Of a DNA stretch of 39,361 bases, positions 15,761 through 36,400 are shown in pieces. This DNA comes from a virus: positions 1-39,361 of the IMG/VR virus record IMGVR_UViG_3300014963_000048; one strand, written 5' to 3'. The translations under genes were made by a program, and so were the position numbers. The notes beneath the pieces are model-generated. The model saw only the letters and a list, made by a program, of their open reading frames with translations. It was not told the DNA's origin and searched no databases. The stretch's first letter is position 1; each line of letters starts with the position of its first letter.

Positions 15761-16408
15761 ATGAAACCTATTGATACTTTTCAAAATAGATTACAAAAGG
15801 CTATGAACATTAGAAATATGAAACAAGTTGATTTAGTTGAAAAGACTCACTTAGATAAAACTTTAATTAATAAATATTTATCTGGCGTTACTAATGCTAA
15901 ACAAGACAAATTGACTATATTAGCAAAAGCTTTAAATATTAATGAAATTTGGCTAATGGGATATGATATACCAATGGATAGAAATGTAGTTTTAGACGAG
16001 CTAGGTAATCCAGTATCTCCTATTCCTTTAGTTGGAGCAGTAAGAGCAGGTTATGATTATTTGGCACAAGAAAATTTAGAAGGTACTATTAATGTTGAAA
16101 AATCTTTAGTTGGAGATGGTTCGGAATATTTTGCTTTAAAAGTTAAAGGCGATAGTATGTCGCCAGTATTTGTTGAAGATGACATTGTTATAATAAAACA
16201 ACAAAATGGCTGTGAAAATAATCAAATAGCTATTGTAATTGTAAATGGTGATGAAGGTACAATAAAAAAAGTAAGAAAGACAGAGCAAGGAATTATATTA
16301 CAGCCACTTAATCCAACATATACACCACTTATATTTACTAATGAAGAAATTAAAAATATGCCCGTAACTATAGTTGGTGTTGTGAAACAATTAAAAAGGG
16401 AGTTTTAA
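15761..16408 (+). CDS. CI/LexA-like repressor (N-terminal XRE HTH plus S24 peptidase domain)
   Basis: The HTH reads MKQVDLVEKTHLDKTLINKYLSG. The S24 motifs are VKGDSMSP and GTIKKV. Confidence 0.85.
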   Translation: MKPIDTFQNRLQKAMNIRNMKQVDLVEKTHLDKTLINKYLSGVTNAKQDKLTILAKALNINEIWLMGYDIPMDRNVVLDELGNPVSPIPLVGAVRAGYDYLAQENLEGTINVEKSLVGDGSEYFALKVKGDSMSPVFVEDDIVIIKQQNGCENNQIAIVIVNGDEGTIKKVRKTEQGIILQPLNPTYTPLIFTNEEIKNMPVTIVGVVKQLKREF

Positions 16409-18605: not shown

Positions 18606-18853
18606 ATGTACTCCTCCTTCTTCTTGACAATTGTCGAAAACGGAAGTATACTTAAACTGTATATAAGTTTTTGAATGTATACTTCCCGAGATAGTTTCAG
18701 TTGCAGCTGAGCTATCTCTTTTTTATATTTTATATCATTGTCGAAAAATGTCAATCAAAATCGTTCGACAAAATAGTACGCTGACAGCGACATATAGTAT
18801 TTTCTTGAATATTCTAATAAAATAATAAGATACTAATAAAAAAGGAGTGTTTT

Positions 18854-19198
18854 ATGTTTGTTTTTAGAATTAAAGAAATAAGAGAAAAAAAGAAAATGAC
18901 AATATATAAATTAAGTAAGCTTTCTAATGTATCTAGAAGCTATATAATTGATTTAGAAAACAACAGAAAGTTAAATCCTAGCTTGACTAAATTATATTCT
19001 TTAGCTACTGCTTTAAATGTTAATATAAAAGATTTATTCTACACTAAATTTGATATAGATATTTTAAAGCAAGAAATGTACAAAAGAATAGACAAATATG
19101 GTATAAAATCACAAGAAACTTTAGAAGTAAGTCAGTTAATTGATTTATTAATTAACATTGACAACGAAGAAAAATCAAAGAGAGAACTAACTGACTAG
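18854..19198 (+). CDS. XRE-family HTH fused to a Spo0E-like C-terminal domain
   Basis: The HTH reads MTIYKLSKLSNVSRSYIIDLENNRK. The C-terminus LKQEMYKRIDKYGIKSQETLEVSQLIDLLINI matches the Spo0E-family pattern (...SQxLDxLI). Confidence 0.6.
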   Translation: MFVFRIKEIREKKKMTIYKLSKLSNVSRSYIIDLENNRKLNPSLTKLYSLATALNVNIKDLFYTKFDIDILKQEMYKRIDKYGIKSQETLEVSQLIDLLINIDNEEKSKRELTD

Positions 19199-27398: not shown

Positions 27399-30069
27399 CT
27401 ACCGTTACTATTGTATTTTTTCCAGTTCTTCTGGTCTTTGAGTTTATATAATCTATTGTATCGTCAAATATTTCTTTACCTAAGTATTGTATTGTTACAT
27501 GCAATGGTTGTCCATTTCCACTATTAAAATCTGATAATACATCTTCAAATGTATCTCTCATTATGTTTTGAGGAGTTGTTATCTCTGGGTTATTGTTTGC
27601 ACCTGAATACTCTCCAAATATAGCTAATGTTTCATCGTATGCAACATTACCTTTGGCTAGTCTTGGCAAATTTAAAGTATTAATTGTTCCAACTGATACT
27701 CCTGGAATCAAATTAATCATTCCGATCCCACCGTTTATTAACCTAATAGCACTATTTATAGTTCTTTCTATTAACGAAATAACACCATTTATTCCGCTTT
27801 TTACTGCTCCACTTATAGCATCTCCTATATTTGTACCTAACCTTGAGAATGTGTTTTTGATTCCATTCCAAATCCCACTAAAGAAGTTTTCAATTCTTCC
27901 AAATACGCTTGTTATTCCATTGTATGCTTCTTGAAATTTGTTTTTTATACCGTCTTTTATCTCTGTAACTTTATTTACTGCATTGTCTTTCATTTCATTA
28001 AATTTATTTACAAAATTATCTTTTATTTCTCCTACTTTTTCTCCTACTTTTTCCCCAAGTTCCTCCGCTGCTTTGATTACTTTTTCAGCCATTTTCACTG
28101 GCATTCCAATAATAAATTCATATGCAAGCTTTATAAGATCTTTTATAAAGTCTAATTCACTTCCTACAGTTGTCTTTATGCCTTCCCAGGCTCTTGACCA
28201 ATCACCTGTAAATACGCCTATCCAAAAGTCTAGCAACCCTCTTATTGTATCTAGCCAATTACCTATTAGCTTTACAATTAATTCTATTGCCGGTGCTGCT
28301 ACTTCCATTATACTAGTCGCAAAAGGTTCTAACGTATCACATAAAACAACTACAAATTCAATTACCTTACTAACAGCATCTAGTAAACTAGTAAATGTAT
28401 CTCTTCCTGCACCTTCCCAGATGTTTTTTATTATTTCTGTTGCTTTCTCTATTACACTTGATATCGTTTCAAAGCCTTGAACAATTGCATTTACGAAATT
28501 CTGTGCTTGTTCTGTTTCCCACCATTTTTTATATGTATCATATATACTTAAAACTATGTCCAAAACATTGTTAAGAGTATCTGCTAAATTTTGAATCATT
28601 TGAGTCCCGTTATTGTTGTTTTCCCAAGCATTCTTCCATTTTTCAGTTATTATTCCAATTGTATCTGAAATGATAGTTATTATTTGTAATATAATAGTAC
28701 AAGTTCTTTCACCTGTTCCGTTTAACCATACTTCTGAAAAACTTCTTCCTACATCATTAAACAATTCTCTTATTTTGTTAGCACTTTTTCTTATTGAATC
28801 CATAAGAGCTTGCCCGTGATTATTCCATGCATTTTGCATTGGCTCAAACAGCTTAGCTAACACTTCTTTGATTTTTTCTGCCCAAGACATAAGTTTTCTG
28901 TCTACACTTCCTAAGTCAAAGCTTGGTGATGTGCTTTCTCCGCTTCCGCTATCTGAATTATCATTAGATTGTACATTATTTATTTCACTATGTATATTAG
29001 ATAAACTTTTTGTTTCATTTTTTGCTTTTTTAGCACTTTTTGCCATACTTGAATATGCTTTTGCACTTGCATTTGCAAATATATTAACTCCTGTAAGTGC
29101 ATAAATTAAAGATTGTACCCCTTTTAATGCTTGATATATAAGATTAACTATATATTGTATAACTGGTGCTAAAGTTGAACCTAGTGCGTATTTCATATAA
29201 TCTATGTTAGCACTTAATTGCTTTGCTTGTGAATTTTGACTAGATAACCACGTGCTAGCTGCGCTTCTCAAAGTTGAATATATTGTTTGCAAACCAAACA
29301 GAGCTCCTGCGATTTTAAATATTTGCCCTAAGCCCGCTTTTAATGAACCTCCCATTCCTCTTAAACTGCTTGTAATATTTCGCCCTGTTTTTGGCATCTG
29401 CTTAAATGCTGTTCCTAGTTTTCCTGCTGATGTTTTTGCTTGTTCTATTTTTTGTTTGAAAGCACTAAAAAAACTACTCAATTTGTTTTGAATAGTTGCT
29501 GTTTTAGACGTCTGCTGTCCTAATTGTGTCATTTTTGTCTTAGCACTGCTTAGTAATGTATTATATTTTTCTATTTCATTGTTTAATTTGTCACTTTGTT
29601 TGACTAATGCTTGATAATTTATATCTTTATCTAGTCTACTATACGTTTCTTGTGTTAATTTTTTATTTCCTGCATCTGGCATTTCATTTATTACAGATTG
29701 ATTCGTGTCATTTCTCATTTTATCTAATGCACTATTAGTAATATCCAACTTTAACTGTCGACCAGTTATTTTTTTTTGTAGACTATCTATTTCTTTTTCT
29801 AGTTGAGTCACTTGCTCACTAGCTTCTTTATTGTTTACTTTTATTGCAATTTTGCTATTTTCACTACTTTTTTTCAAGTCTTGTATTTTTTTCTTTGCAA
29901 AATTTGTAGCTTGTTGCACTTTGCTTTTTATTTCTTTAGCATCTATTTTTGAAAAAGCTTCTTGTACTTGTTTCATTTTTTCTTTAATTGCCGGTACTAT
30001 TTTATTAAATTCCTTCAATGCTTCTTCTACTTTTGCAGTTACAATTATTTCAATTTCTTCTGCTGTCAT
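27391..30069 (-). CDS. Tape measure protein
   Basis: 892 aa with a coiled-coil N-terminus, hydrophobic central segments and a small tandem EKVGEKVGE repeat. GGAAGGAGG ribosome-binding site. Confidence 0.85.
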   Translation of the reverse strand: MTAEEIEIIVTAKVEEALKEFNKIVPAIKEKMKQVQEAFSKIDAKEIKSKVQQATNFAKKKIQDLKKSSENSKIAIKVNNKEASEQVTQLEKEIDSLQKKITGRQLKLDITNSALDKMRNDTNQSVINEMPDAGNKKLTQETYSRLDKDINYQALVKQSDKLNNEIEKYNTLLSSAKTKMTQLGQQTSKTATIQNKLSSFFSAFKQKIEQAKTSAGKLGTAFKQMPKTGRNITSSLRGMGGSLKAGLGQIFKIAGALFGLQTIYSTLRSAASTWLSSQNSQAKQLSANIDYMKYALGSTLAPVIQYIVNLIYQALKGVQSLIYALTGVNIFANASAKAYSSMAKSAKKAKNETKSLSNIHSEINNVQSNDNSDSGSGESTSPSFDLGSVDRKLMSWAEKIKEVLAKLFEPMQNAWNNHGQALMDSIRKSANKIRELFNDVGRSFSEVWLNGTGERTCTIILQIITIISDTIGIITEKWKNAWENNNNGTQMIQNLADTLNNVLDIVLSIYDTYKKWWETEQAQNFVNAIVQGFETISSVIEKATEIIKNIWEGAGRDTFTSLLDAVSKVIEFVVVLCDTLEPFATSIMEVAAPAIELIVKLIGNWLDTIRGLLDFWIGVFTGDWSRAWEGIKTTVGSELDFIKDLIKLAYEFIIGMPVKMAEKVIKAAEELGEKVGEKVGEIKDNFVNKFNEMKDNAVNKVTEIKDGIKNKFQEAYNGITSVFGRIENFFSGIWNGIKNTFSRLGTNIGDAISGAVKSGINGVISLIERTINSAIRLINGGIGMINLIPGVSVGTINTLNLPRLAKGNVAYDETLAIFGEYSGANNNPEITTPQNIMRDTFEDVLSDFNSGNGQPLHVTIQYLGKEIFDDTIDYINSKTRRTGKNTIVTVGD

Positions 30070-30100
30070 TATACTTCCTCCTTCCGCTTTTTACTTTTCA

Positions 30101-30130
30101 TAAAAAAACGTCAGATTAATTCTGACGTTT
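30101..30130 (-). terminator. Intrinsic terminator (10-bp perfect stem aaacgtcaga/tctgacgttt plus a T run) between the accessory island and the tape measure gene
   Basis: Read directly. Confidence 0.7.
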
Positions 30131-30139
30131 GATTTTTAT

Positions 30140-30574
30140 TTATGCTACTTGATTTACTAAATCTTTAACTTTTATTTCCATATTATCTAAATTTTCAAGT
30201 ATGTCATCCCAAAAATATTCTGGTAATTCTCTGTATGTCGCTACCCCGTATTGGTCATTTAGCTTTCCATATACCCTAGGAAATATTTTTGATTTCATTT
30301 GATGATAATCTAAATTATTTTCTTCACATACTATTTTTACTTTTTCTTTAACAGCTTTTCTTAATAATCTTGCTTTATTTGAACTTAAATATATTTTCCT
30401 TTTTATTATTTCATCATGTTCTTGTAATTTATTATCGACTTCATTAAATTTTTGCTCTGTTTCAGTTTTAAATCCTGCAAATGCATAATTCATAATTGTT
30501 TGACTTTCCATTAAACTTTTTAACATATCCTCATTAGATATTTCTTTCTTTTCTTTTAATATCATATCACTCAT
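30140..30574 (-). CDS. ORF6C-domain-like protein
   Basis: C-terminal KIFPRVYGKLNDQYGVATYRELPEYFWDDILENL resembles the ORF6C/antirepressor C-terminal domain. Confidence 0.4.
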   Translation of the reverse strand: MSDMILKEKKEISNEDMLKSLMESQTIMNYAFAGFKTETEQKFNEVDNKLQEHDEIIKRKIYLSSNKARLLRKAVKEKVKIVCEENNLDYHQMKSKIFPRVYGKLNDQYGVATYRELPEYFWDDILENLDNMEIKVKDLVNQVA

Positions 30575-31460
30575 TTATTATTTCTCCTTCACTAAATATT
30601 ATATTTCCAACAACGTTTTGTTCATTGTTTAATGCTTGTTTCATTAATAATGCCCAATTTTCTATTTCTTGAATTTTATTCTCTACTATCCTTTTATTTT
30701 TAGATGGTATTTTTTGTAGTTCATCTTTTAAATATGTATATTTAGAAGCATTATTCAAAAAATCCGTTATATTTACTAGTAAGTTGTCTAATTTTATATT
30801 TGTATATACTTTATCTTGATTTATTTCTTTATCTAATTTTAATCGATTTACAGTATTTTCAGCTTTTTCTGCCCTTTTTCTTAATGTTTCTAACTCGTCT
30901 TCTAATGATTGTTTTTCTAGAATAAGATTTTCTGGTATTACCTCTTTAATAATTTCTTTTTCAACTACTTGTACTTCAGGTTTTGAAACGTTTTCTATTT
31001 TATTTTGCAAATTTCTTATTTGAATTTCTTTTTCTTTTATTGCTTCTTGAAGTTCTTCTGAATATTCTTTTTCTGCTTCTAACTGTTTTTTTATTTCTTT
31101 CTTTTCTTTTACAACTTGTTCTAATTCTCTTGTTGTCATTTCTTCTATATTGTTTTCTTGCATTACTTCTTCTCTATTTTCTTCATCTAAACCTGCAAGA
31201 AGAAACAATTTTGTACTTCCTAAATTCGCAATCGATTGCGAATTTGAAAAAGTTGTTGCAACTTTCATAAAATTATTTGCTGTTCTATGGCTTATATCTA
31301 CTCTTTTCTTTAACCATTCTGAAAATTCTCCATGTTGCAAATTTTCTTTTACCTCTATAAGTCTTTTACCTATTTCTATTATATTCTGAGCAGTTTGGTC
31401 TTTTAATATAAGAATTTCTGCTGTTGTTTTTTCTATATTAAACTCTGTTAACTCTTGCAT
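30567..31460 (-). CDS. DUF3102-like protein with a long coiled coil
   Basis: N-terminus AQNIIEIGKRLIEVKENLQHGEFSEWLKKRVDISHRTANNFMKVA. Confidence 0.5.
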   Translation of the reverse strand: MQELTEFNIEKTTAEILILKDQTAQNIIEIGKRLIEVKENLQHGEFSEWLKKRVDISHRTANNFMKVATTFSNSQSIANLGSTKLFLLAGLDEENREEVMQENNIEEMTTRELEQVVKEKKEIKKQLEAEKEYSEELQEAIKEKEIQIRNLQNKIENVSKPEVQVVEKEIIKEVIPENLILEKQSLEDELETLRKRAEKAENTVNRLKLDKEINQDKVYTNIKLDNLLVNITDFLNNASKYTYLKDELQKIPSKNKRIVENKIQEIENWALLMKQALNNEQNVVGNIIFSEGEIINE

Positions 31461-31630
31461 ATCGATTTATCCTTTCTTGGCAACTTTTTCAGTGCTGTTA
31501 ACCCTTCGTCTAAAGTAAATCTTCCTTTATTTACTCCTCTGTATATAGTCCCCATAATTTTGTATATTGTTCTTTTACAGTTTCTTCTGTCTTGTAAATA
31601 TCCTTTTAAAGCATTTGTATATTCTTCCAT
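31448..31630 (-). CDS. Hypothetical protein
   Basis: Track ORF. Confidence 0.4.
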   Translation of the reverse strand: MEEYTNALKGYLQDRRNCKRTIYKIMGTIYRGVNKGRFTLDEGLTALKKLPRKDKSICKS

Positions 31631-31914
31631 TAAGCAACACCTACTTTCTGGTATGGTATACCTCTGCTAAATAAAGGATTTCCATTTTCGAATATATAAT
31701 CATTAATATTTATATTGTCTATATCTTCTTTAGTTAAAGGTGTGGTACTTACCACAATATAACTTAACTCATTATAATTGCACCTCATAATAAATTGAAT
31801 ATTTCTTGTTTTGTATATAGCCTTCTCGATAATAGCATTAAACCAATTACCTTTTATTCTTTTTGGTTTGCTCCAAAGTACTAAATCATCTTTTTTTATT
31901 TCTTTAATTTCCAT
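31630..31914 (-). CDS. Hypothetical protein
   Basis: Track ORF. Confidence 0.45.
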   Translation of the reverse strand: MEIKEIKKDDLVLWSKPKRIKGNWFNAIIEKAIYKTRNIQFIMRCNYNELSYIVVSTTPLTKEDIDNININDYIFENGNPLFSRGIPYQKVGVA

Positions 31915-31918
31915 ATGC

Positions 31919-32071
31919 TTACACCTCCAACATCTTCATAAGATTTTTATAAATATTAAAATTAAAAATCCTATAGCTTATTAGTTGTATAAACATAAAT
32001 CCAATAAAACCTAAAGATGCATATATTCCTAATAATATAATTGTAAATATTCCTGTTATTAAAATTTCCAT
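31919..32071 (-). CDS. 50-aa hydrophobic peptide (MEILITGIFTIILLGIYASLGFIGFMFIQLISYRIF...)
   Basis: Manual translation. GGAGG ribosome-binding site. It is preceded by a structured 131-nt leader. Confidence 0.45.
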   Translation of the reverse strand: MEILITGIFTIILLGIYASLGFIGFMFIQLISYRIFNFNIYKNLMKMLEV

Positions 32072-32202
32072 AATAAAAAGACCTCCACTTCAATTTTACT
32101 TGAATTTCAGTCCTTACTGTGATACAATATATTTGTAAGGACTAAAATTCTTATGTTTGAGATAATCTGTGCTGTTCGCCAAAACTTAGCAGGTTATCTC
32201 TC

Positions 32203-32409
32203 TTATTTTTTTAATTCTTGGTAGATTTTGTCTATTCCATCTCTAACAATTTCTGATTTATTTTTATCACTATGTTGTATACAATAATCTAATTTTTCTT
32301 TTTCTTTTTCTGATATTCTTACTTTTAATTCAATATTTTTAGGATTGTCAGTAGGTCTACCTATTTTTTTATTTTCTATTTTTCTCACCTCACTTTTGTT
32401 CACACACAT
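32203..32409 (-). CDS. Ribbon-helix-helix (CopG-like) protein
   Basis: GRPTDNPKNIELKVRISEKEKEKLDYC...KSEIVRDGIDKIY. Confidence 0.55.
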   Translation of the reverse strand: MCVNKSEVRKIENKKIGRPTDNPKNIELKVRISEKEKEKLDYCIQHSDKNKSEIVRDGIDKIYQELKK

Positions 32410-32484
32410 ATATTATAATATGTTCACACAAAAGTCAAGAGGTATTTTAATATTTTTTAAATTTTTTTCAAAAGAAAAAAACAC

Positions 32485-33484
32485 TTAATTAAGTGCTTCT
32501 TTACATTTTTTAATTAAATTTTCTTTACTTATTAATTCAGTATATTTCCACTCTATTAGCTTTACATTGTTTTCTTGACAAAGCTTTCTTTTTTTATCAT
32601 CTAAACTCTTTCTTTTTAGTAGTCCTTCTTCTCCTCCGAAATATGCCAATAGGATTATAATGTTGTTCTCCTTGATATTCAAAAGCGACTTTTTTGCTTG
32701 GAATATATATATCTATCGATTGTCTTCCGAGCCACTCTGCTCTATATTGATAAATGGCATCTTTAAATATATCTTTTATGATTTTATATAATGTAAGTTC
32801 TGATGTATTTTTTAATTTTATATAGTTAGGTAGTCCTATTATTTTTCTTAACACTTCATCTCTTCTATCATATGCATTGTTTACGGCTTCCATAGAGTCT
32901 TTAAAGTAATTCATTCTGTATTTCCAACAAATTGCTTCATTAATTGCATTATATGTTTCGTTCTTTTGTAGATGTGACTTATATAACTTTTGAACTGTGT
33001 ATTCTTCGTTTAGATTTAACTCTTTTTTTAATTCTTCGAAGATTTCTTTTTCTTCTGTTATATCTATATTGCTATCTATTGAATTTTTATATATTTGACT
33101 TTCTGATATAATTGCTAATATATGCTGAAGTGATTTTTTTCTTACTGATATAAAATTATTATAATTATTCAGGATATACATATTAAATATATCTTCAATT
33201 CTGTTGATATCATATGTCACTTTATAATTGATAGTTATATCATTTTTCAATATGTTTTTAACAATTTCTACATCATCTGCATTTTTCATATAATATTCTT
33301 TAACCCAAAAGTTAAATTCTTCAAATTTTGGAAATAAAAACACTGATTTATCTTTGTCTACTTTTGCTTGCTTTCTTTCTATATTATACTTTTCTAATGA
33401 ATATAATCTATCGTACTGTTTTATTTCTTGCAATAATTCCTTTTCATTTGGATATAGTTCTATCTCTTGTGTTTTTTTATTCAT
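32485..33484 (-). CDS. 332-aa protein with a C-terminal Vsr/DUF559-like PD-(D/E)xK endonuclease domain. Track ORFs 32597..33484 and 32485..32682 are joined by a +1 shift at CGG 32636-32638.
   Basis: The 0 frame reads ...NPIGIF-CGG-AGG, giving RRRRRTTKKKEFR then a stop. The +1 frame reads GGEEGLLKRKSLDDKKRKLCQENNVKLIEWKY. The joined sequence IDIYIPSKKVAFEYQGEQHY...FGG fits the family. Confidence 0.6.
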
Positions 33485-33510
33485 TTCAAGTTATCCTTTT
33501 CATAAGTATT

Positions 33511-34047
33511 TTATAAATTATTAAATACTTTTAGTATCTTGTCTTTGTTTATATGTTCTTCATAACCAGTTAATACTAATCCTTTGTTGTACACTGCTTT
33601 CATTTCATAATTATCAAAACTTGGCATTGTTATTATTCCTTTTTCTTTTGCAGATTTAATATTTGATTTTGTTAATTCTTCTTTGCTATTAGTATTATAT
33701 AAATATATTTCTATATATTCACCATTTATTTCTAGTCCATAACCTTCTTTTGCTCCTATGAGTTCGGCTGATTTATTTATTTTGTTATCTATTTTTAAGT
33801 TTGCTTCTTCAAGTTTTTTTATAAAATCATCTATATTCAAATTACTTTGTGATTGTTTTATATTACTTGTTAGACTACTTGTAGCGCTTTCACTATCGCC
33901 TTGATTAGCTAAATATAAACAAATCCCTATGCTTGCAATTATAATTATTACGATTATTGCTATTATAAGTTTTTTGTTATTATTTCCCGATGAATGCTTG
34001 CTCATCTTTTTCCCCTCACAATGTGCCATAATTGATTCCCCCTTCAT
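33511..34047 (-). CDS. Membrane-anchored protein (N-terminal transmembrane segment, extracytoplasmic domain); superinfection-exclusion candidate
   Basis: KKLIIAIIVIIIIASIGICLYL anchor. The likely true start is at 34005 (MSKHSS, GAGGGG ribosome-binding site). It has its own promoter. Confidence 0.5.
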   Translation of the reverse strand: MKGESIMAHCEGKKMSKHSSGNNNKKLIIAIIVIIIIASIGICLYLANQGDSESATSSLTSNIKQSQSNLNIDDFIKKLEEANLKIDNKINKSAELIGAKEGYGLEINGEYIEIYLYNTNSKEELTKSNIKSAKEKGIITMPSFDNYEMKAVYNKGLVLTGYEEHINKDKILKVFNNL

Positions 34048-34061
34048 TCAATATATTAAGA

Positions 34062-34090
34062 ATTATATCGAACGAAGTCGAATAAGACAA
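34062..34090 (-). promoter_or_regulatory. Promoter of the accessory island (TTGTCT, 17 nt, TATAAT) with TTCGAC in the spacer
   Basis: The reverse complement reads cTTGTCTtattcgacttcgttcgaTATAAT. Confidence 0.5.
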
Positions 34091-34141
34091 GAAAAATCGT
34101 GTTACAAAATTCGACACTTTTTTTCGTTGTCAGCAATTTTT

Positions 34142-34393
34142 TTATCCTTTAAACAACTTTCTTTGCTCTTCTAATGTTTGCTCTTGTTTATCTTCAAACA
34201 ACTTTTTGTAATTATCTCTAATCATTATTATTTTTGCATTCTTATTCATACAATCACCTGCGATTAATTTATTAGTCACCGCTTCTTGTAAATCTATTTC
34301 TCTTCTCAAATCGTCAAAAATTTTAACTAAGTGAGTTTGACAGTAAATATTTATTTCTGAATATCTGCTATTCCAAAATTCGGACGGCTTCAT
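34142..34393 (-). CDS. Tail assembly chaperone, T-like part (frame open upstream to about 34620; probably expressed as a -1 frameshift fusion)
   Basis: There is no ribosome-binding site before the ATG at 34393. This frame is -1 relative to the upstream chaperone ORF and is open across its stop. Confidence 0.5.
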   Translation of the reverse strand: MKPSEFWNSRYSEINIYCQTHLVKIFDDLRREIDLQEAVTNKLIAGDCMNKNAKIIMIRDNYKKLFEDKQEQTLEEQRKLFKG

Positions 34394-34491
34394 ATCGAAA
34401 TAATACGCAAGTGGTTCTATCGCATATATTAAGTCTATTAAATTGTTAGTGTCTTTTATATTTTGTATTATATTGCTTAATCCTTTTGACT

Positions 34492-34923
34492 CTAGAACTC
34501 TTGTTCTATTATCTTGCCTACCACGTTTTCTGCAGATTTCTCTACAATCTTGTCTAAGTTTAGCGTAGACAAAGGATTTGTTGCTATTTCTTTCAACTCT
34601 TTCTTTGTCATTTTCTTTTTGAAAAAACCCTCATCATTCAATGCCTCCGCAATCTTTTCATATAAATTTTTAATTGTCATTCCTTCTTTTCTACATTCAT
34701 CTATAAAATCGTAAACTTCATCACTATTTGTAAATGCATTTTCTCCACTTTCTAATTCTGATATTTTAAATATTATCTTTGATAAAGCTTCCATGTCTAA
34801 TATAGAATATGCTTTAATAAAAGCTTCTTCAAAATTTTTATTTTTAAGTAGATTAGCTATATCTACTATTTTTCTTGTTTTTAGTACTAAATTAATATTT
34901 CTATTTTTTGTTTCTATAATCAT
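34492..34923 (-). CDS. Tail assembly chaperone (G-like)
   Basis: It lies between the major tail gene and the downstream tail genes. ...ALNDEGFFKKKMTKKEL is present. The start at 34923 is chosen because of an AGGAG ribosome-binding site. Confidence 0.6.
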   Translation of the reverse strand: MIIETKNRNINLVLKTRKIVDIANLLKNKNFEEAFIKAYSILDMEALSKIIFKISELESGENAFTNSDEVYDFIDECRKEGMTIKNLYEKIAEALNDEGFFKKKMTKKELKEIATNPLSTLNLDKIVEKSAENVVGKIIEQEF

Positions 34924-34940
34924 TTTATTTTCTCTCCTTT

Positions 34941-34971
34941 GCAAAAGAGAGAAGACTTTTCAGTCTTCTCT
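34941..34971 (-). terminator. Hairpin/attenuator directly after the major tail gene (agagaagact tttc agtcttctct)
   Basis: Read directly: 10-bp perfect stem and a short T run. Confidence 0.55.
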
Positions 34972-34973
34972 TA

Positions 34974-35459
34974 TTAAAATTTTGTTGAATCTCCCTCTAC
35001 AGGATATCCATCTGTTTCTACTACTTTTGATTCTTTATATACTCTCATAGTATCCTTTATAAAGTCCCCATCGTTCATCTCTTGTCCTGCAATATCTACA
35101 GTACATTTCACAGTCTGAACTAATGGTTTATTGGCAACTGATGCTGTTGTCTCTGGATATTCTAAGAATAAGAATATTGTTGTATCTGCATCAGCTATTT
35201 CTTGAATAGCTTTATGTGTTTCTTGTATAAACATCATTTCTATATCAACAGTTTCTGCTTTTCTTTTTCCTTTAGCCATTCTTTCTTCTTCTAAATCTAA
35301 TGCACTATATGTTTGTCCCTCTTTTAAAGTTTTTAATTGTCCTACCTTTTGAACATAACCTATATCTGTTCTGTCTCCTGTTAATGTTGTTGCATAAGAC
35401 ACCTTCGCTTTCATAGCAACTTGTGGTGTTGTTGTTTTTGGTGTTGCTTCATCTCCCAT
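34974..35459 (-). CDS. Major tail protein
   Basis: 161 aa, in the position before the chaperone genes, followed by a hairpin. Confidence 0.6.
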   Translation of the reverse strand: MGDEATPKTTTPQVAMKAKVSYATTLTGDRTDIGYVQKVGQLKTLKEGQTYSALDLEEERMAKGKRKAETVDIEMMFIQETHKAIQEIADADTTIFLFLEYPETTASVANKPLVQTVKCTVDIAGQEMNDGDFIKDTMRVYKESKVVETDGYPVEGDSTKF

Positions 35460-35471
35460 TTTTAATTCCTC

Positions 35472-35858
35472 CTATCTTAAATTAAAAGAGCTCGTTATAG
35501 AATTATAACAAACCTCAAAAGTTATTGTTATACCATATTTTTGCAGTATTTGGTCATATACTGCAGGACTGGTATTTGTCCTTGTAAAATTAAGTTCTTG
35601 AAGCTTTTTATCAACTTCATCTGTCATTTGCATTGCCTGGCGTTGCTTTTCATTCCAACAAGTTATCGAAATTTGAAATGTAGAACGAATAGGAAATGCA
35701 TTTTCGGTTAAATTTACTGACTTTAAAGGTGTATGTAATTCTAGCATAGGAAATTTACTTTCTGTATTTGGATTGCTTAAAATTGGCTTATTTTTATACA
35801 ATTTTTCTAGTTTTTCATATACTAAATCACTAAACTCTTTTATACTTAAATCTTTCAT
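35472..35858 (-). CDS. Tail terminator / tail completion protein candidate
   Basis: Position and size. Confidence 0.4.
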   Translation of the reverse strand: MKDLSIKEFSDLVYEKLEKLYKNKPILSNPNTESKFPMLELHTPLKSVNLTENAFPIRSTFQISITCWNEKQRQAMQMTDEVDKKLQELNFTRTNTSPAVYDQILQKYGITITFEVCYNSITSSFNLR

Positions 35859-36400
35859 TACTTACATACCTCCTTCAGCATTTCATCTAGTTTCTTCTTG
35901 ACAATTTCTGTATTTTCATTTCTGGTTTTAAATTCAGCATCGCCTAAAAAGTGATTTGCCCTTGAACCAACCGCTACATAGAATTGAGTATTTCCTATTG
36001 TTGTGATTGGAAAATTCAAGGATCTACCTACTTTATGTACGGGTATATACCACTCAGTGTAACCTGTTTCCAAAAAGTGTTTTGTCTTACCAATATGTTC
36101 TTTTTCAGCATATTGACCTGTTCCGAAATATTCAAACCATAAATATGATTGTCCATTTTCAGTCATAAATTTAGCAGGGTCTGCATAAACCCTGCCTTTA
36201 ACTGTTTTCGTTGACATATCAACCATCTCAACGATAATACCATCTTCTTTATGACCTTTTTCTAATCTTATTGCACAACCTCTAATGTTTTTTAGAACAT
36301 CTTCTGTTGCTATCTTTACTGTTTGTGGTAGTTTTTGAATTATAGCATTAATATTTTTGAAATTATTTTTTACTTTTATATTACAATTAAAATTTATCAT
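35858..36400 (-). CDS. HK97 gp10-like neck protein
   Basis: Position, and the general HK97 gp10-like layout. Confidence 0.45.
   Translation of the reverse strand: MINFNCNIKVKNNFKNINAIIQKLPQTVKIATEDVLKNIRGCAIRLEKGHKEDGIIVEMVDMSTKTVKGRVYADPAKFMTENGQSYLWFEYFGTGQYAEKEHIGKTKHFLETGYTEWYIPVHKVGRSLNFPITTIGNTQFYVAVGSRANHFLGDAEFKTRNENTEIVKKKLDEMLKEVCK

Follow-up and report, generated by a model that had tools for sequence, protein, structure and literature searches.

The stretch analyzed here (the window) comprises positions 1 to 39,361 of the IMG/VR virus record IMGVR_UViG_3300014963_000048, from a temperate siphovirus genome with a low G+C content (0.279). In its tail operon, an island of non-structural genes is located between the tail assembly chaperone (TAC) genes and the gene of the tape measure protein (TMP). 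The comparison with relatives shows, with little room for doubt, that this TAC-T/TMP junction is a hypervariable moron hotspot. As a whole, the island is probably the Gram-positive siphovirus counterpart of the "ant moron" (immI) of phage P22, judging from the analogy in their organization.

The junction between the chaperone and tape measure genes

The virion genes of the window are all located on the minus strand, where the scaffold, capsid and head-tail genes are followed by the major tail protein (MTP, 34974-35459), TAC-G (34492-34944) and TAC-T, the T open reading frame (ORF) in the -1 frame (34142-34393). TAC-G matches Phage_TAC_12 weakly (22 bits, under the 26.2 cut-off). No stop codon interrupts the T frame over at least 69 codons before its own ATG, and this frame is at -1 relative to G, so that the G/GT reading is sound. 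The TMP gene (892 aa; 27391-30069) is syntenic with the TMP of all relatives, and Dit- and Tal-like genes follow it.

Between the TAC-T stop (34142) and the TMP ATG (30069) there are 4072 nt, in agreement with the insert of roughly 4 kb described in the initial annotation of this DNA. The same annotation counted nine genes. There are nine ORFs indeed, all of them on the minus strand according to the program-made ORF list from which the gene order was read, but they correspond to eight genes because the nuclease gene is split by a frameshift. Its domain calls, namely a membrane anchor, a Vsr-like nuclease, an RHH (ribbon-helix-helix) protein, DUF3102 and ORF6C, proved right, with the RHH match remaining sub-threshold. 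The G+C content of the island is 0.251 versus 0.29-0.31 in the flanking virion genes, which is the deviating composition expected of a moron.

A megablast search with positions 27000-36000 and a tblastn search with MTP against 50,697 phage records retrieved one distant metagenomic virus only. Since no close cultured relative was found, synteny was taken from IMG/VR and GTDB genomes. The scan of IMG/VR with TAC-G produced 164 relatives, of which 80 loci were kept (TAC-G identity 66-99%), and the scan of one genome per species added 30 prophages, almost all in metagenome-assembled genomes of uncultured gut Clostridia. Mapping of the window's proteins showed that synteny is kept throughout these loci for MTP, TAC-G, TAC-T, TMP, Dit and Tal.

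On the contrary, what lies between TAC-T and TMP differs from locus to locus. In the 72 measurable IMG/VR relatives their distance ranges from 375 to ~3500 nt, with the window showing the largest value. The ORFs of these gaps form 52 clusters, several of which are spurious antisense ORFs or TMP fragments, and some of the long gaps are inflated by frameshifted TMP N-termini (clusters C10 and C28). The same pattern of variable gaps is repeated in the 30 prophages of the uncultured Clostridia. In prophage L099, only 49 nt and no gene separate the TAC-T stop from the TMP start. The canonical order with adjacent genes thus exists in this phage family, and everything else is insertion. The comparison with relatives lacking the insert, which the initial annotation had proposed as a check, thus found one empty site and swapped content elsewhere; together with the lower G+C content and the terminator described below, these results agree with its view of the island as a moron. 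Its view of the location as unusual did not hold, as about 100 relatives carry cargo at this junction and only one does not, and as a precedent exists in the ant moron of the P22-like phages (PMC2629481).

The first position after TAC-T (slot 1) is very diverse, and in the relatives it is mostly occupied by membrane-associated proteins, of the types DUF4190, DUF4352, SHOCT, bPH (bacterial PH), TM2 and zinc ribbon plus transmembrane segment. Membrane segments are predicted in 8 of the 11 slot-1 protein families.

At its other end, the island is closed by a terminator (30099-30130, minus strand), placed 36 nt upstream of the TMP start. It consists of a 10-bp stem (30130-30106) with 4 G-C pairs, a loop of 5 nt and a run of seven T, and thus the strong terminator of the initial annotation stands; terminator-like sites are enriched as a class in the scanned region (7 versus 2.2 +/- 1.2 in shuffles). 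A hairpin and T-run of their own, 30-45 nt before the TMP start, were found in about 40 of the 42 distinct relatives, whatever the cargo, which shows that a terminator in front of TMP is a feature of the family. In this phage group, several kb of non-structural genes and a strong terminator are a normal finding between the chaperone and TMP, and in annotation they should not be taken as the mark of a prophage boundary. At the gathering thresholds, Rfam gave no match over the whole window, and at E <= 1 over the island it gave one match of chance level only, located on this terminator. The tRNA search found none.

The junction is not the only one used by these genes. In L021 (14694-15145) and L031 (15113-15901), a second insertion junction contains an RHH module and a gene similar to unk60 (see below) between TMP and Dit, and in loci L117-L121 the junction used is the one between MTP and TAC.

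The last case provides an example of transfer between backbones. The segment 30104-32097 (minus strand) of the window, which contains the genes hyd50, unk94, unk60, DUF3102 and ORF6C and the terminator, shares 98.8% identity with L117-L121 over 1995 nt, whereby their backbone is unrelated to that of the window (ClpP-type protease, HK97-type capsid of PF05065 and a TMP of 1115 aa). The only other match at the DNA level is of 49 nt, just upstream of the RHH promoter. In L117-L121, this recently transferred cassette separates MTP from the chaperone genes, and ahead of it there are a lipoprotein gene and an RHH gene of another type, the latter with its own operators and antisense promoter. Similarly, 1.96 kb of the window (33848-31909) are 88.9% identical to L113, whereas the two backbones are only ~70% identical. 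The break points coincide with short conserved linkers, that is, the promoter after TAC-T, the terminator with the RHH promoter, the hairpin of the antisense promoter with the ribosome-binding site, and the terminator before TMP, and this points to recombinational exchange at these linkers. An integrative element with att-like flanking repeats was also considered and rejected, as the repeats are only of low complexity and AT-rich and the island has no integrase or replication gene.

Control elements and effector genes of the second unit

The initial annotation regarded the island as one unit, expressed from one promoter independently of the late operon. The conserved elements do point to such independence, but they divide the island into at least two units and add an antisense promoter. 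The first unit ends at a weak hairpin with a T-run (32475-32502, minus strand; palindrome I4), which overlaps the stop codon of the nuclease gene. In the relatives, the same place immediately ahead of the RHH promoter is taken by a stronger hairpin (AACACTTACTTAGGTAGGTGTT and T-run).

The putative promoter region of unit 2 (32397-32438, minus strand) includes TTGACT and TAATAT with a spacer of 17 nt (32438-32410). Two copies of TGTGTGAACA, at 32430-32421 and 32406-32397, flank the -10 with a spacing of 24 nt (repeat D5). The block ACCTCTTGACT...TAATAT is almost invariant in loci that are wholly different upstream (alignment A1). The sequence of the repeat varies with the RHH type, of which there are six, while its position is fixed and the -35 frame remains unchanged. 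In detail, the repeat is TGTGAACACA in L113, TGTGGATACA in L122 and L057, ATGACGTCA in L117 and L081, TGATATCAAA in L064 and, in inverted arrangement, GTATCTTGC/GCAAGATAC in L111. Covariation with the RHH type at a fixed position is the pattern expected of the operators of an autorepressor with diverging specificity, and the TGTGTGAACA repeats are presumed to be the operators of the RHH protein.

The RHH protein itself is of the Arc/CopG type (68 aa; 32203-32409, minus strand) and matches phrog_876 "transcriptional repressor" with E = 3.5e-16. Five RHH variants all gave weak matches of RHH type, which are sub-threshold but consistent. Its start can be placed either at an ATG within the promoter (32409) or at an ATA (32379) located 5 nt after a GAGGTGA ribosome-binding site. 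In close relatives, an ATG is found before GGTAGACCT, where the window has ATA (32364). In two RHH types, AUA or AUU is at the canonical distance from a strong ribosome-binding site (compare L117, about 6110). This apparent lack of a canonical start codon may serve to keep the translation of the repressor low.

Just downstream of the RHH gene, a convergent antisense promoter is predicted on the plus strand (32100-32128; TTGAAT, 17 nt and the extended -10 TGaTACAAT). The pattern TTGAN16TGNTAYAAT has a single match in the whole 39-kb window, versus 0.07 expected. Antisense matches were obtained within the island of 23 fetched family loci, and also in eight loci fetched by protein identity. In every RHH-bearing locus whose gene order was examined, the pattern is placed just downstream of RHH, across unrelated sequence types. 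The antisense promoter is accompanied by a terminator hairpin in L017, L023, L026, L031, L037, L043, L057, L062, L064, L081, L082, L086, L111, L113, L117 and L122.

The predicted countertranscript of ~75 nt (32135-32212, plus strand) would fold into a 5' hairpin (32135-32154) and a long terminator hairpin (32159-32200), with a U-run after the latter, and it is complementary to the 3' end of RHH and to the spacer between RHH and hyd50. Its fold has an energy of -21.3 kcal/mol (z = -4.0), and the equivalent RNA of L117 has another sequence but the same shape (z = -4.3). The spacer of 130 nt past the RHH stop is structured also on the sense strand (z = -4.1) and is kept across loci in which the next gene differs, and the promoter-bearing hairpin shows four pairs with compensatory changes. 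No Rfam family matched the countertranscript. In alignment A2, the RNAalifold consensus missed hairpin 1, where sequence and orientation differ between loci and the alignment is poor; this hairpin was judged by eye and its support is weaker.

In the long hairpin (A2 columns about 40-90; 32159-32200), the stem is kept through sequence change. The loop TTGGCG reads CGCCAA in L057, L023 and L031, as if it had been flipped between lineages.

Based on these elements, a control circuit composed of the RHH repressor and the antisense RNA seems the better guess for unit 2, although by no means a safe one.

The genes placed under this putative control start with hyd50 (31919-32071, minus strand), a hydrophobic peptide of 50 aa with one or two membrane segments by hydropathy, which is also found in L113 and L117-L121. 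It is followed by unk94 (94 aa; 31630-31914, minus strand) and unk60 (60 aa; 31448-31630, minus strand), with the start codon of each overlapping the preceding stop codon. Neither of them has a family match in Pfam or PHROG. Both are included in the nearly identical block of L117, and relatives of unk60 exist in L057, L021 and L031.

The DUF3102 protein (297 aa; 30567-31460, minus strand) matches PF11300 with E = 1.2e-24 (87.5 bits versus a cut-off of 24.4). It comprises an N-terminal helical domain resembling a helix-turn-helix (HTH), a long coiled coil and a C-terminal helical part. The model has a pLDDT of 66 overall and of 77-86 for residues 21-150, except for one ten-residue block at 69. 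The N-terminal domain is weakly similar to the HTH of Spo0J/ParB (4umk, probability 0.99, E = 0.43; all Foldseek E values >0.1), a resemblance which is a lead and not a result. Proteins 72-100% identical to DUF3102 are found on hundreds of gut contigs. The ORF6C protein (144 aa; 30140-30574, minus strand), whose start overlaps the DUF3102 stop by 8 nt, matches PF10552 (25.1 bits versus a cut-off of 22) and also PHROGs 373 and 463 "anti-repressor".

The position after RHH is occupied by one of two effector types in ~20 mapped loci of the family. The one is a Bro-N+KilAC antirepressor (ANT 1.4e-29, Bro-N 8.2e-29) preceded by a protein of ~120 aa, and the other is the DUF3102+ORF6C pair. As exceptions, L105 and possibly L102 bear RHH but neither of the two types, and the slot of L113 contains a fusion of Bro-N with ORF6C. 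In L071 (about 7092-8400), a truncated N-terminus of DUF3102 (96 aa, 81% identical) is directly followed by a Bro-N/KilAC antirepressor; this arrangement looks like a recombination scar, in which one effector type replaced the other.

The cultured phages with a DUF3102 N-terminal domain are mostly Streptococcus phages. For instance, Streptococcus prophage Javan642 has a DUF3102-like gene of 303 aa in its early region, two genes after a Cro-sized gene of "transcriptional regulation", with a divergently transcribed repressor further upstream of the latter. As in the window, an ORF6C gene, annotated "antirepressor", follows in the same domain order and overlaps the DUF3102-like gene by 8 nt. The two DUF3102 proteins can be aligned only in their N-terminal ~100 residues (40-47% identity). 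The two ORF6C proteins gave no BLASTP alignment, and they are linked through their common match to PF10552. Unlike the pair of Javan642, which belongs to an early operon, that of the window is in the tail operon under the predicted RHH/antisense control. The location of the Javan642 pair in the early region, near regulators, makes a role in immunity or regulation the best guess. An antirepressor-type function of the DUF3102/ORF6C pair is in this respect suggested by analogy, and we propose it tentatively, with somewhat more doubt than belief.

The first unit: promoter, membrane protein and nuclease

The putative promoter region of unit 1 (34062-34116, minus strand) contains TTGTCT (-35) and TATAAT (-10) with a spacer of 17 nt at 34090-34062 (motif score 10/12). 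The promoter of the initial annotation (34062-34090) is therefore present as a motif and conserved in the relatives, but its motif class is not above chance. Its support comes instead from the presence of a promoter-like element after the TAC-T stop in nearly all relatives. In these loci, the TAC-T stop is followed by a shared block of TTTTCGACAAAATTCGACA, ~20 nt, TGnTATAAT, a ribosome-binding site and the start of slot 1, of which the window carries a variant.

The same region contains motifs identical to Spo0A boxes, whose consensus is TGTCGAA (PMC3485338), with TTCGACA as its reverse complement. One perfect 7-mer TGTCGAA (34116-34110) precedes the -35, and TTCGACttcgTTCGA (34082-34068, minus strand), with tandem TTCGAC/TTCGA cores, is inside the spacer between -35 and -10. 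The pattern TTCGACN{3,7}TTCGA has 2 matches in the window versus 0.02 expected. A perfect 7-mer is found within 110 nt past the TAC-T stop in 40 of the 42 distinct loci, against a background of 0.005 per 110 nt.

All seven perfect Spo0A-box 7-mers of the window (TGTCGAA/TTCGACA) are intergenic and located among accessory genes (18632-18770, 19381-19397, 20631-20672 and 34068-34116), and two of these intergenic regions are upstream of Spo0E-like genes. At 19397-19381 (minus strand), a tandem pair of boxes is placed ~20 nt upstream of TGtTATAAT, before a small Spo0E-like ORF which starts near 19334. The gene at 18854-19198 is a fusion of an HTH with a Spo0E-like domain. Judging from these motifs, the phage may both sense and manipulate the Spo0A state of its host.

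Slot 1 of the window encodes a membrane protein (33511-34029, minus strand). The ORF extends over 33511-34047, and a GGGGG ribosome-binding site favours the ATG at 34029, which results in a protein of 172 aa (178 aa from 34047). It has a single N-terminal membrane anchor (residues ~21-39, hydropathy peak 3.18) and an outside domain of ~130 aa. No match was found in Pfam, PHROG, PADLOC or the PDB. The protein is an orphan with 19 homologues among 5.8 billion proteins, none of them named, and its N-terminus is common to cluster C13 of L002-L004.

The second gene of the unit (32485-33484, minus strand), which starts 26 nt after that of the membrane protein, is composed of an ORF of 295 aa (32597-33484) and a tail of 65 aa in the +1 frame (32485-32682). 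Both ORFs match the same PHROGs end to end, and intact homologues of 320-326 aa exist, versus the interrupted frame of the window. The model of the joined protein has a pLDDT of 94.3, and its C-terminal ~110 residues match the structures of Vsr (1cw0 with probability 1.00 and a target-normalized TM-score of 0.53; 1vsr with probability 0.99). Its neighbours in BFVD are named "restriction enzyme", DUF559 or "homing endonuclease" (E from 6e-9). Residues D258, E269, Q271, H275, D295 and K298 are invariant in 32 sequences. Modelling thus confirms a Vsr-type PD-(D/E)xK fold with conserved acidic and His residues, and the protein looks like a free-standing homing endonuclease and not like a defence nuclease. 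PDB sequence searches with this protein, the DUF3102 protein and the membrane protein gave nothing significant.

The break of the nuclease gene consists of one extra C (32638) after TTT, in the context ATA TTT C GGA GGA, which creates a candidate +1 frameshift site UUU-CGG at 32641-32636 (minus strand). The same break is found in L113 (about 6840-6850), whose allele differs at 11% of the nucleotides and whose backbone has an identity of only ~70%. A comparison of the two alleles gives a dN/dS of 0.15 for the part preceding the break and of 0.03 for the part following it, read in the +1 frame (6 synonymous changes and 1 non-synonymous), whereas in the other two frames all changes are non-synonymous. 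Purifying selection past the shift suggests that the tail of the nuclease is still translated. The form of 295 aa is on record as five different sequences, which come from about 40 contigs of various samples and sources. An assembly error was considered and rejected, in view of these records and of the allele at 89% DNA identity sharing the break. The codon CGG is very rare (0.55 per 1000), and the simplest reading is a programmed +1 shift, in which tRNA-Phe would slip from UUU to UUC at a hungry CGG codon. Alternatively, a recent gene conversion may have spread the mutation.

The membrane protein and the nuclease are the genes on which the initial annotation's defence or exclusion cassette would depend. 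According to this explanation, the membrane protein would block DNA entry and the nuclease would degrade foreign DNA, with RHH, DUF3102 and ORF6C as the regulators or as a new defence system. Diverse membrane proteins in slot 1 are as expected of exclusion factors, the P22 ant moron carries sieA too (PMC2629481), and late-operon morons of prophages can defend, as in the case of Tab of JBD26 (PMC10884400). However, a search of PADLOC (PADLOC-DB 2.0) gave no match for nine of ten proteins and a weak one for ORF6C (PDC-M13C, E = 5e-4), and no relative of known function was detected for the membrane protein. The presence of a nuclease is a point in favour, but its neighbours include free-standing phage homing endonucleases beside the proteins named DUF559 or restriction enzyme, and it occurs in a minority of relatives, always at the same sub-site. 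Furthermore, the larger half of the island is a module with the features of repressor and antisense control, whose slot is filled in relatives by a classical antirepressor with Bro-N/KilAC, which argues against an exclusion cassette. Of the alternatives this one survives best, and even so it appears unlikely.

A second alternative places the nuclease at the centre. The homing endonuclease would cut co-infecting or resident genomes that lack it, and repair would copy the nuclease together with the neighbouring cassettes, so that the island would be selfish cargo and the hotspot would be explained without benefit to phage or host. In favour of this, the nuclease is found in at least four backbones (the window, L111, L113 and L122), always at one sub-site between the slot-1 gene and the RHH promoter, with its stop in the terminator hairpin; the flanking segments shared with L113 are far more similar than the backbones, and both parts of the gene are under purifying selection. 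On the other hand, the nuclease is absent from all 110 loci fetched with TAC-G, which are equally variable, and the cassette shared with L117 moves without it. The conserved linkers alone can account for exchange by homologous recombination, and the nuclease has no known target site. We regard selfish cargo as improbable.

In a third alternative, hyd50 would be the toxin and the antisense RNA the antitoxin of a type I (addiction) pair, with the remainder of unit 2 as passenger DNA. It is true that a strong antisense promoter and a structured RNA immediately precede the gene of the hydrophobic peptide. Nevertheless, the promoter and its hairpins are equally conserved where the next gene encodes a soluble protein of 120 aa (C3), so that they are not specific to the toxin-like gene, and the predicted RNA overlaps neither the coding region nor the ribosome-binding site of hyd50. 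This makes an addiction pair highly improbable. That the island genes are conserved, unrecognized factors of tail morphogenesis, as their orientation with and position between tail genes could suggest, is practically untenable, since synteny already contradicts it: nearly every relative has other content, one lacks genes at this position altogether, and the same cassette is found between MTP and TAC in an unrelated phage.

Outside the island, the lysogeny genes of the window include a CI-type repressor with HTH and S24 domains (15761-16408), a DUF739 Cro-like gene and a tyrosine integrase. Elsewhere, two similar promoter-like sites on the plus strand (20760-20800 and 20990-21035), with the internal palindromes TTGACttcacGGTACACCGTGTACtATAAT and TTGACAtacGGTATACCGTGTgttATTATAAT, each precede a small plus-strand ORF; these paired palindromic sites look like operator-bearing promoters with a common regulator. 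At 19440-20481 (minus strand), a SocA/Panacea gene (19978-20481; PF13274, 28.7 bits) overlaps the start of a gene of 183 aa without any match. The two, located in the accessory region next to the integrase, are possibly toxin and antitoxin.

Proposed function and comparison with known systems

Taken together, the island as a counterpart of the ant moron could operate as follows. Cargo would be swapped by recombination at the short conserved linkers of the hotspot. The promoter of unit 1, with its Spo0A-box motifs, would drive the membrane-anchored surface protein, possibly an envelope or superinfection-exclusion factor expressed in lysogens, and the Vsr-fold homing endonuclease, whose full-length product would be obtained by the +1 frameshift at UUU-CGG. 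In unit 2, the RHH protein would shut its own promoter through the two operator repeats flanking the -10, as the covariation of operators and RHH types suggests, and the antisense promoter, which looks constitutive, would produce the countertranscript of ~75 nt and further limit the downstream genes. The payload of this unit would then be the three small proteins and the DUF3102/ORF6C pair, the latter acting as an antirepressor-type effector of the lysis-lysogeny switch, with the phage's own S24-type CI or the repressors of other prophages as target. Finally, the terminator at 30130-30106 would insulate TMP from island transcription in lysogens and would also weaken the late read-through that reaches the low-copy tail genes.

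A more specific proposal can be formulated, in which the junction (TAC|TMP or MTP|TAC) is a standardized expression platform with exchangeable effectors. The platform would consist of the RHH autorepressor, the type-specific operators and the convergent countertranscript, DUF3102+ORF6C would represent a new antirepressor-like class of switch, the +1-frameshifted Vsr-fold endonuclease would help to drive cassette exchange, and the membrane gene would be tied to the Spo0A state of the host. It is unlikely that all these parts hold jointly.

Several results weigh against the ant moron interpretation or its parts. The number of promoter-like sites in this AT-rich DNA does not exceed chance (75 seen versus 67.9 +/- 8 expected), and the Spo0A boxes at or near the unit-1 promoter are assigned by motif identity. 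The RHH_1 profile matches the RHH protein of the window under its cut-off (E = 0.0057; 17 bits versus 20.5), and the start of this gene may be non-canonical or mutated, so that the repressor might be poorly made in the window. The predicted countertranscript leaves the ribosome-binding site of the next gene uncovered, unlike sar of P22 or RNAII of pMV158. In the case of the effectors, the profile search of the window gave no match to PF03374 (Ant/KilAC) or PF02498, the ParB-type HTH suggested by the DUF3102 model would suit a DNA-binding regulator at least as well as an antirepressor that binds a repressor, and the literature on DUF3102 consists of incidental mentions, with no functional study. 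Lastly, the membrane protein resembles none of the known exclusion proteins.

The more interesting leads of this work are the conserved, predicted countertranscript, the covarying operators, the Spo0A-box promoters and the conserved +1 frameshift of the nuclease. The covarying RHH/operator pairs could be used as orthogonal repressors and in the prediction of heteroimmunity. The Spo0A-box promoters suggest that accessory genes of prophages are coupled to the sporulation and stationary-phase regulator of the host. The DUF3102/ORF6C pair gains a candidate function.

Among known systems, the free-standing homing endonucleases of phages resemble the nuclease of the island in being placed between genes and sporadic among relatives. 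The C-terminal fold of ~110 aa is shared with those of Enterococcus phage EFP01, Staphylococcus phage Remus and Bacillus phages Bobb and Eldridge in BFVD (Foldseek probability 1.00, E to 6e-9). The N-terminal region of ~220 aa differs from theirs, and the +1 shift common to two diverged alleles is a further difference.

The lambdoid and Mu-like morons (defined in HK97/HK022, and including Tab of Pseudomonas phage JBD26; PMC10884400) are also sporadic extra genes of the late operon, with their own promoter (a putative one in the island) and terminator and a composition unlike that of the flanks. The island differs from them in being multigenic, with two units and a predicted internal regulatory circuit, and no defence function was identified in it.

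The order of RHH gene, countertranscript and effector resembles that of the island in the copG-rnaII-repB operon of plasmid pMV158. There, a small RHH autorepressor heads the operon, and a short countertranscript with a terminator hairpin is transcribed from a convergent promoter located between repressor and effector, so that the effector is under dual control. The effector of pMV158 serves to initiate replication, and the site where its translation starts is covered by the RNA. In the island, on the contrary, the effectors are proteins of phage regulatory type and the predicted RNA is placed upstream of the ribosome-binding site.

The closest parallel is the ant moron of the P22-like phages, a late-operon region of variable length and content, with ten types in sixteen genomes (PMC2629481). 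In P22 it includes mnt, arc, the sar antisense RNA, ant and sieA, and it reportedly affects how transcription reads through into the tailspike gene (PMC2629481). The differences are several. The window belongs to a siphovirus of Clostridia, whereas P22 is an enterobacterial podovirus. The junction is also different, that is, TAC|TMP in the island and the one between gene 16 and the tailspike gene in P22. The island has one RHH gene and no second, divergent repressor like mnt, compared with two in P22; its effectors are DUF3102 and ORF6C instead of an Ant/KilAC protein, its predicted countertranscript misses the ribosome-binding site of the effector, and it adds a homing-type nuclease and Spo0A-box promoter motifs. 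Since none of its proteins resembles Arc, Mnt, Ant or SieA in sequence, the island does not belong to the ant moron at the sequence level.

The similarities concern the organization. Both regions are hypervariable, are inserted in the late operon between virion genes and show a turnover above that of their surroundings. In both, a small RHH repressor, putative in the island, is directly upstream of the effector genes and co-oriented with them, and the promoter of a small antisense RNA, predicted in the case of the island, lies between repressor and effector. An antirepressor occupies the slot, in the island's relatives, and a gene for a membrane protein adjoins it. Both are sited where they could modulate read-through into the downstream tail gene. 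The idea of the ant moron as a fast-evolving secondary immunity region within the virion operon would in this way extend from the P22-like enterobacterial phages to the abundant prophages of uncultured human-gut Clostridia.

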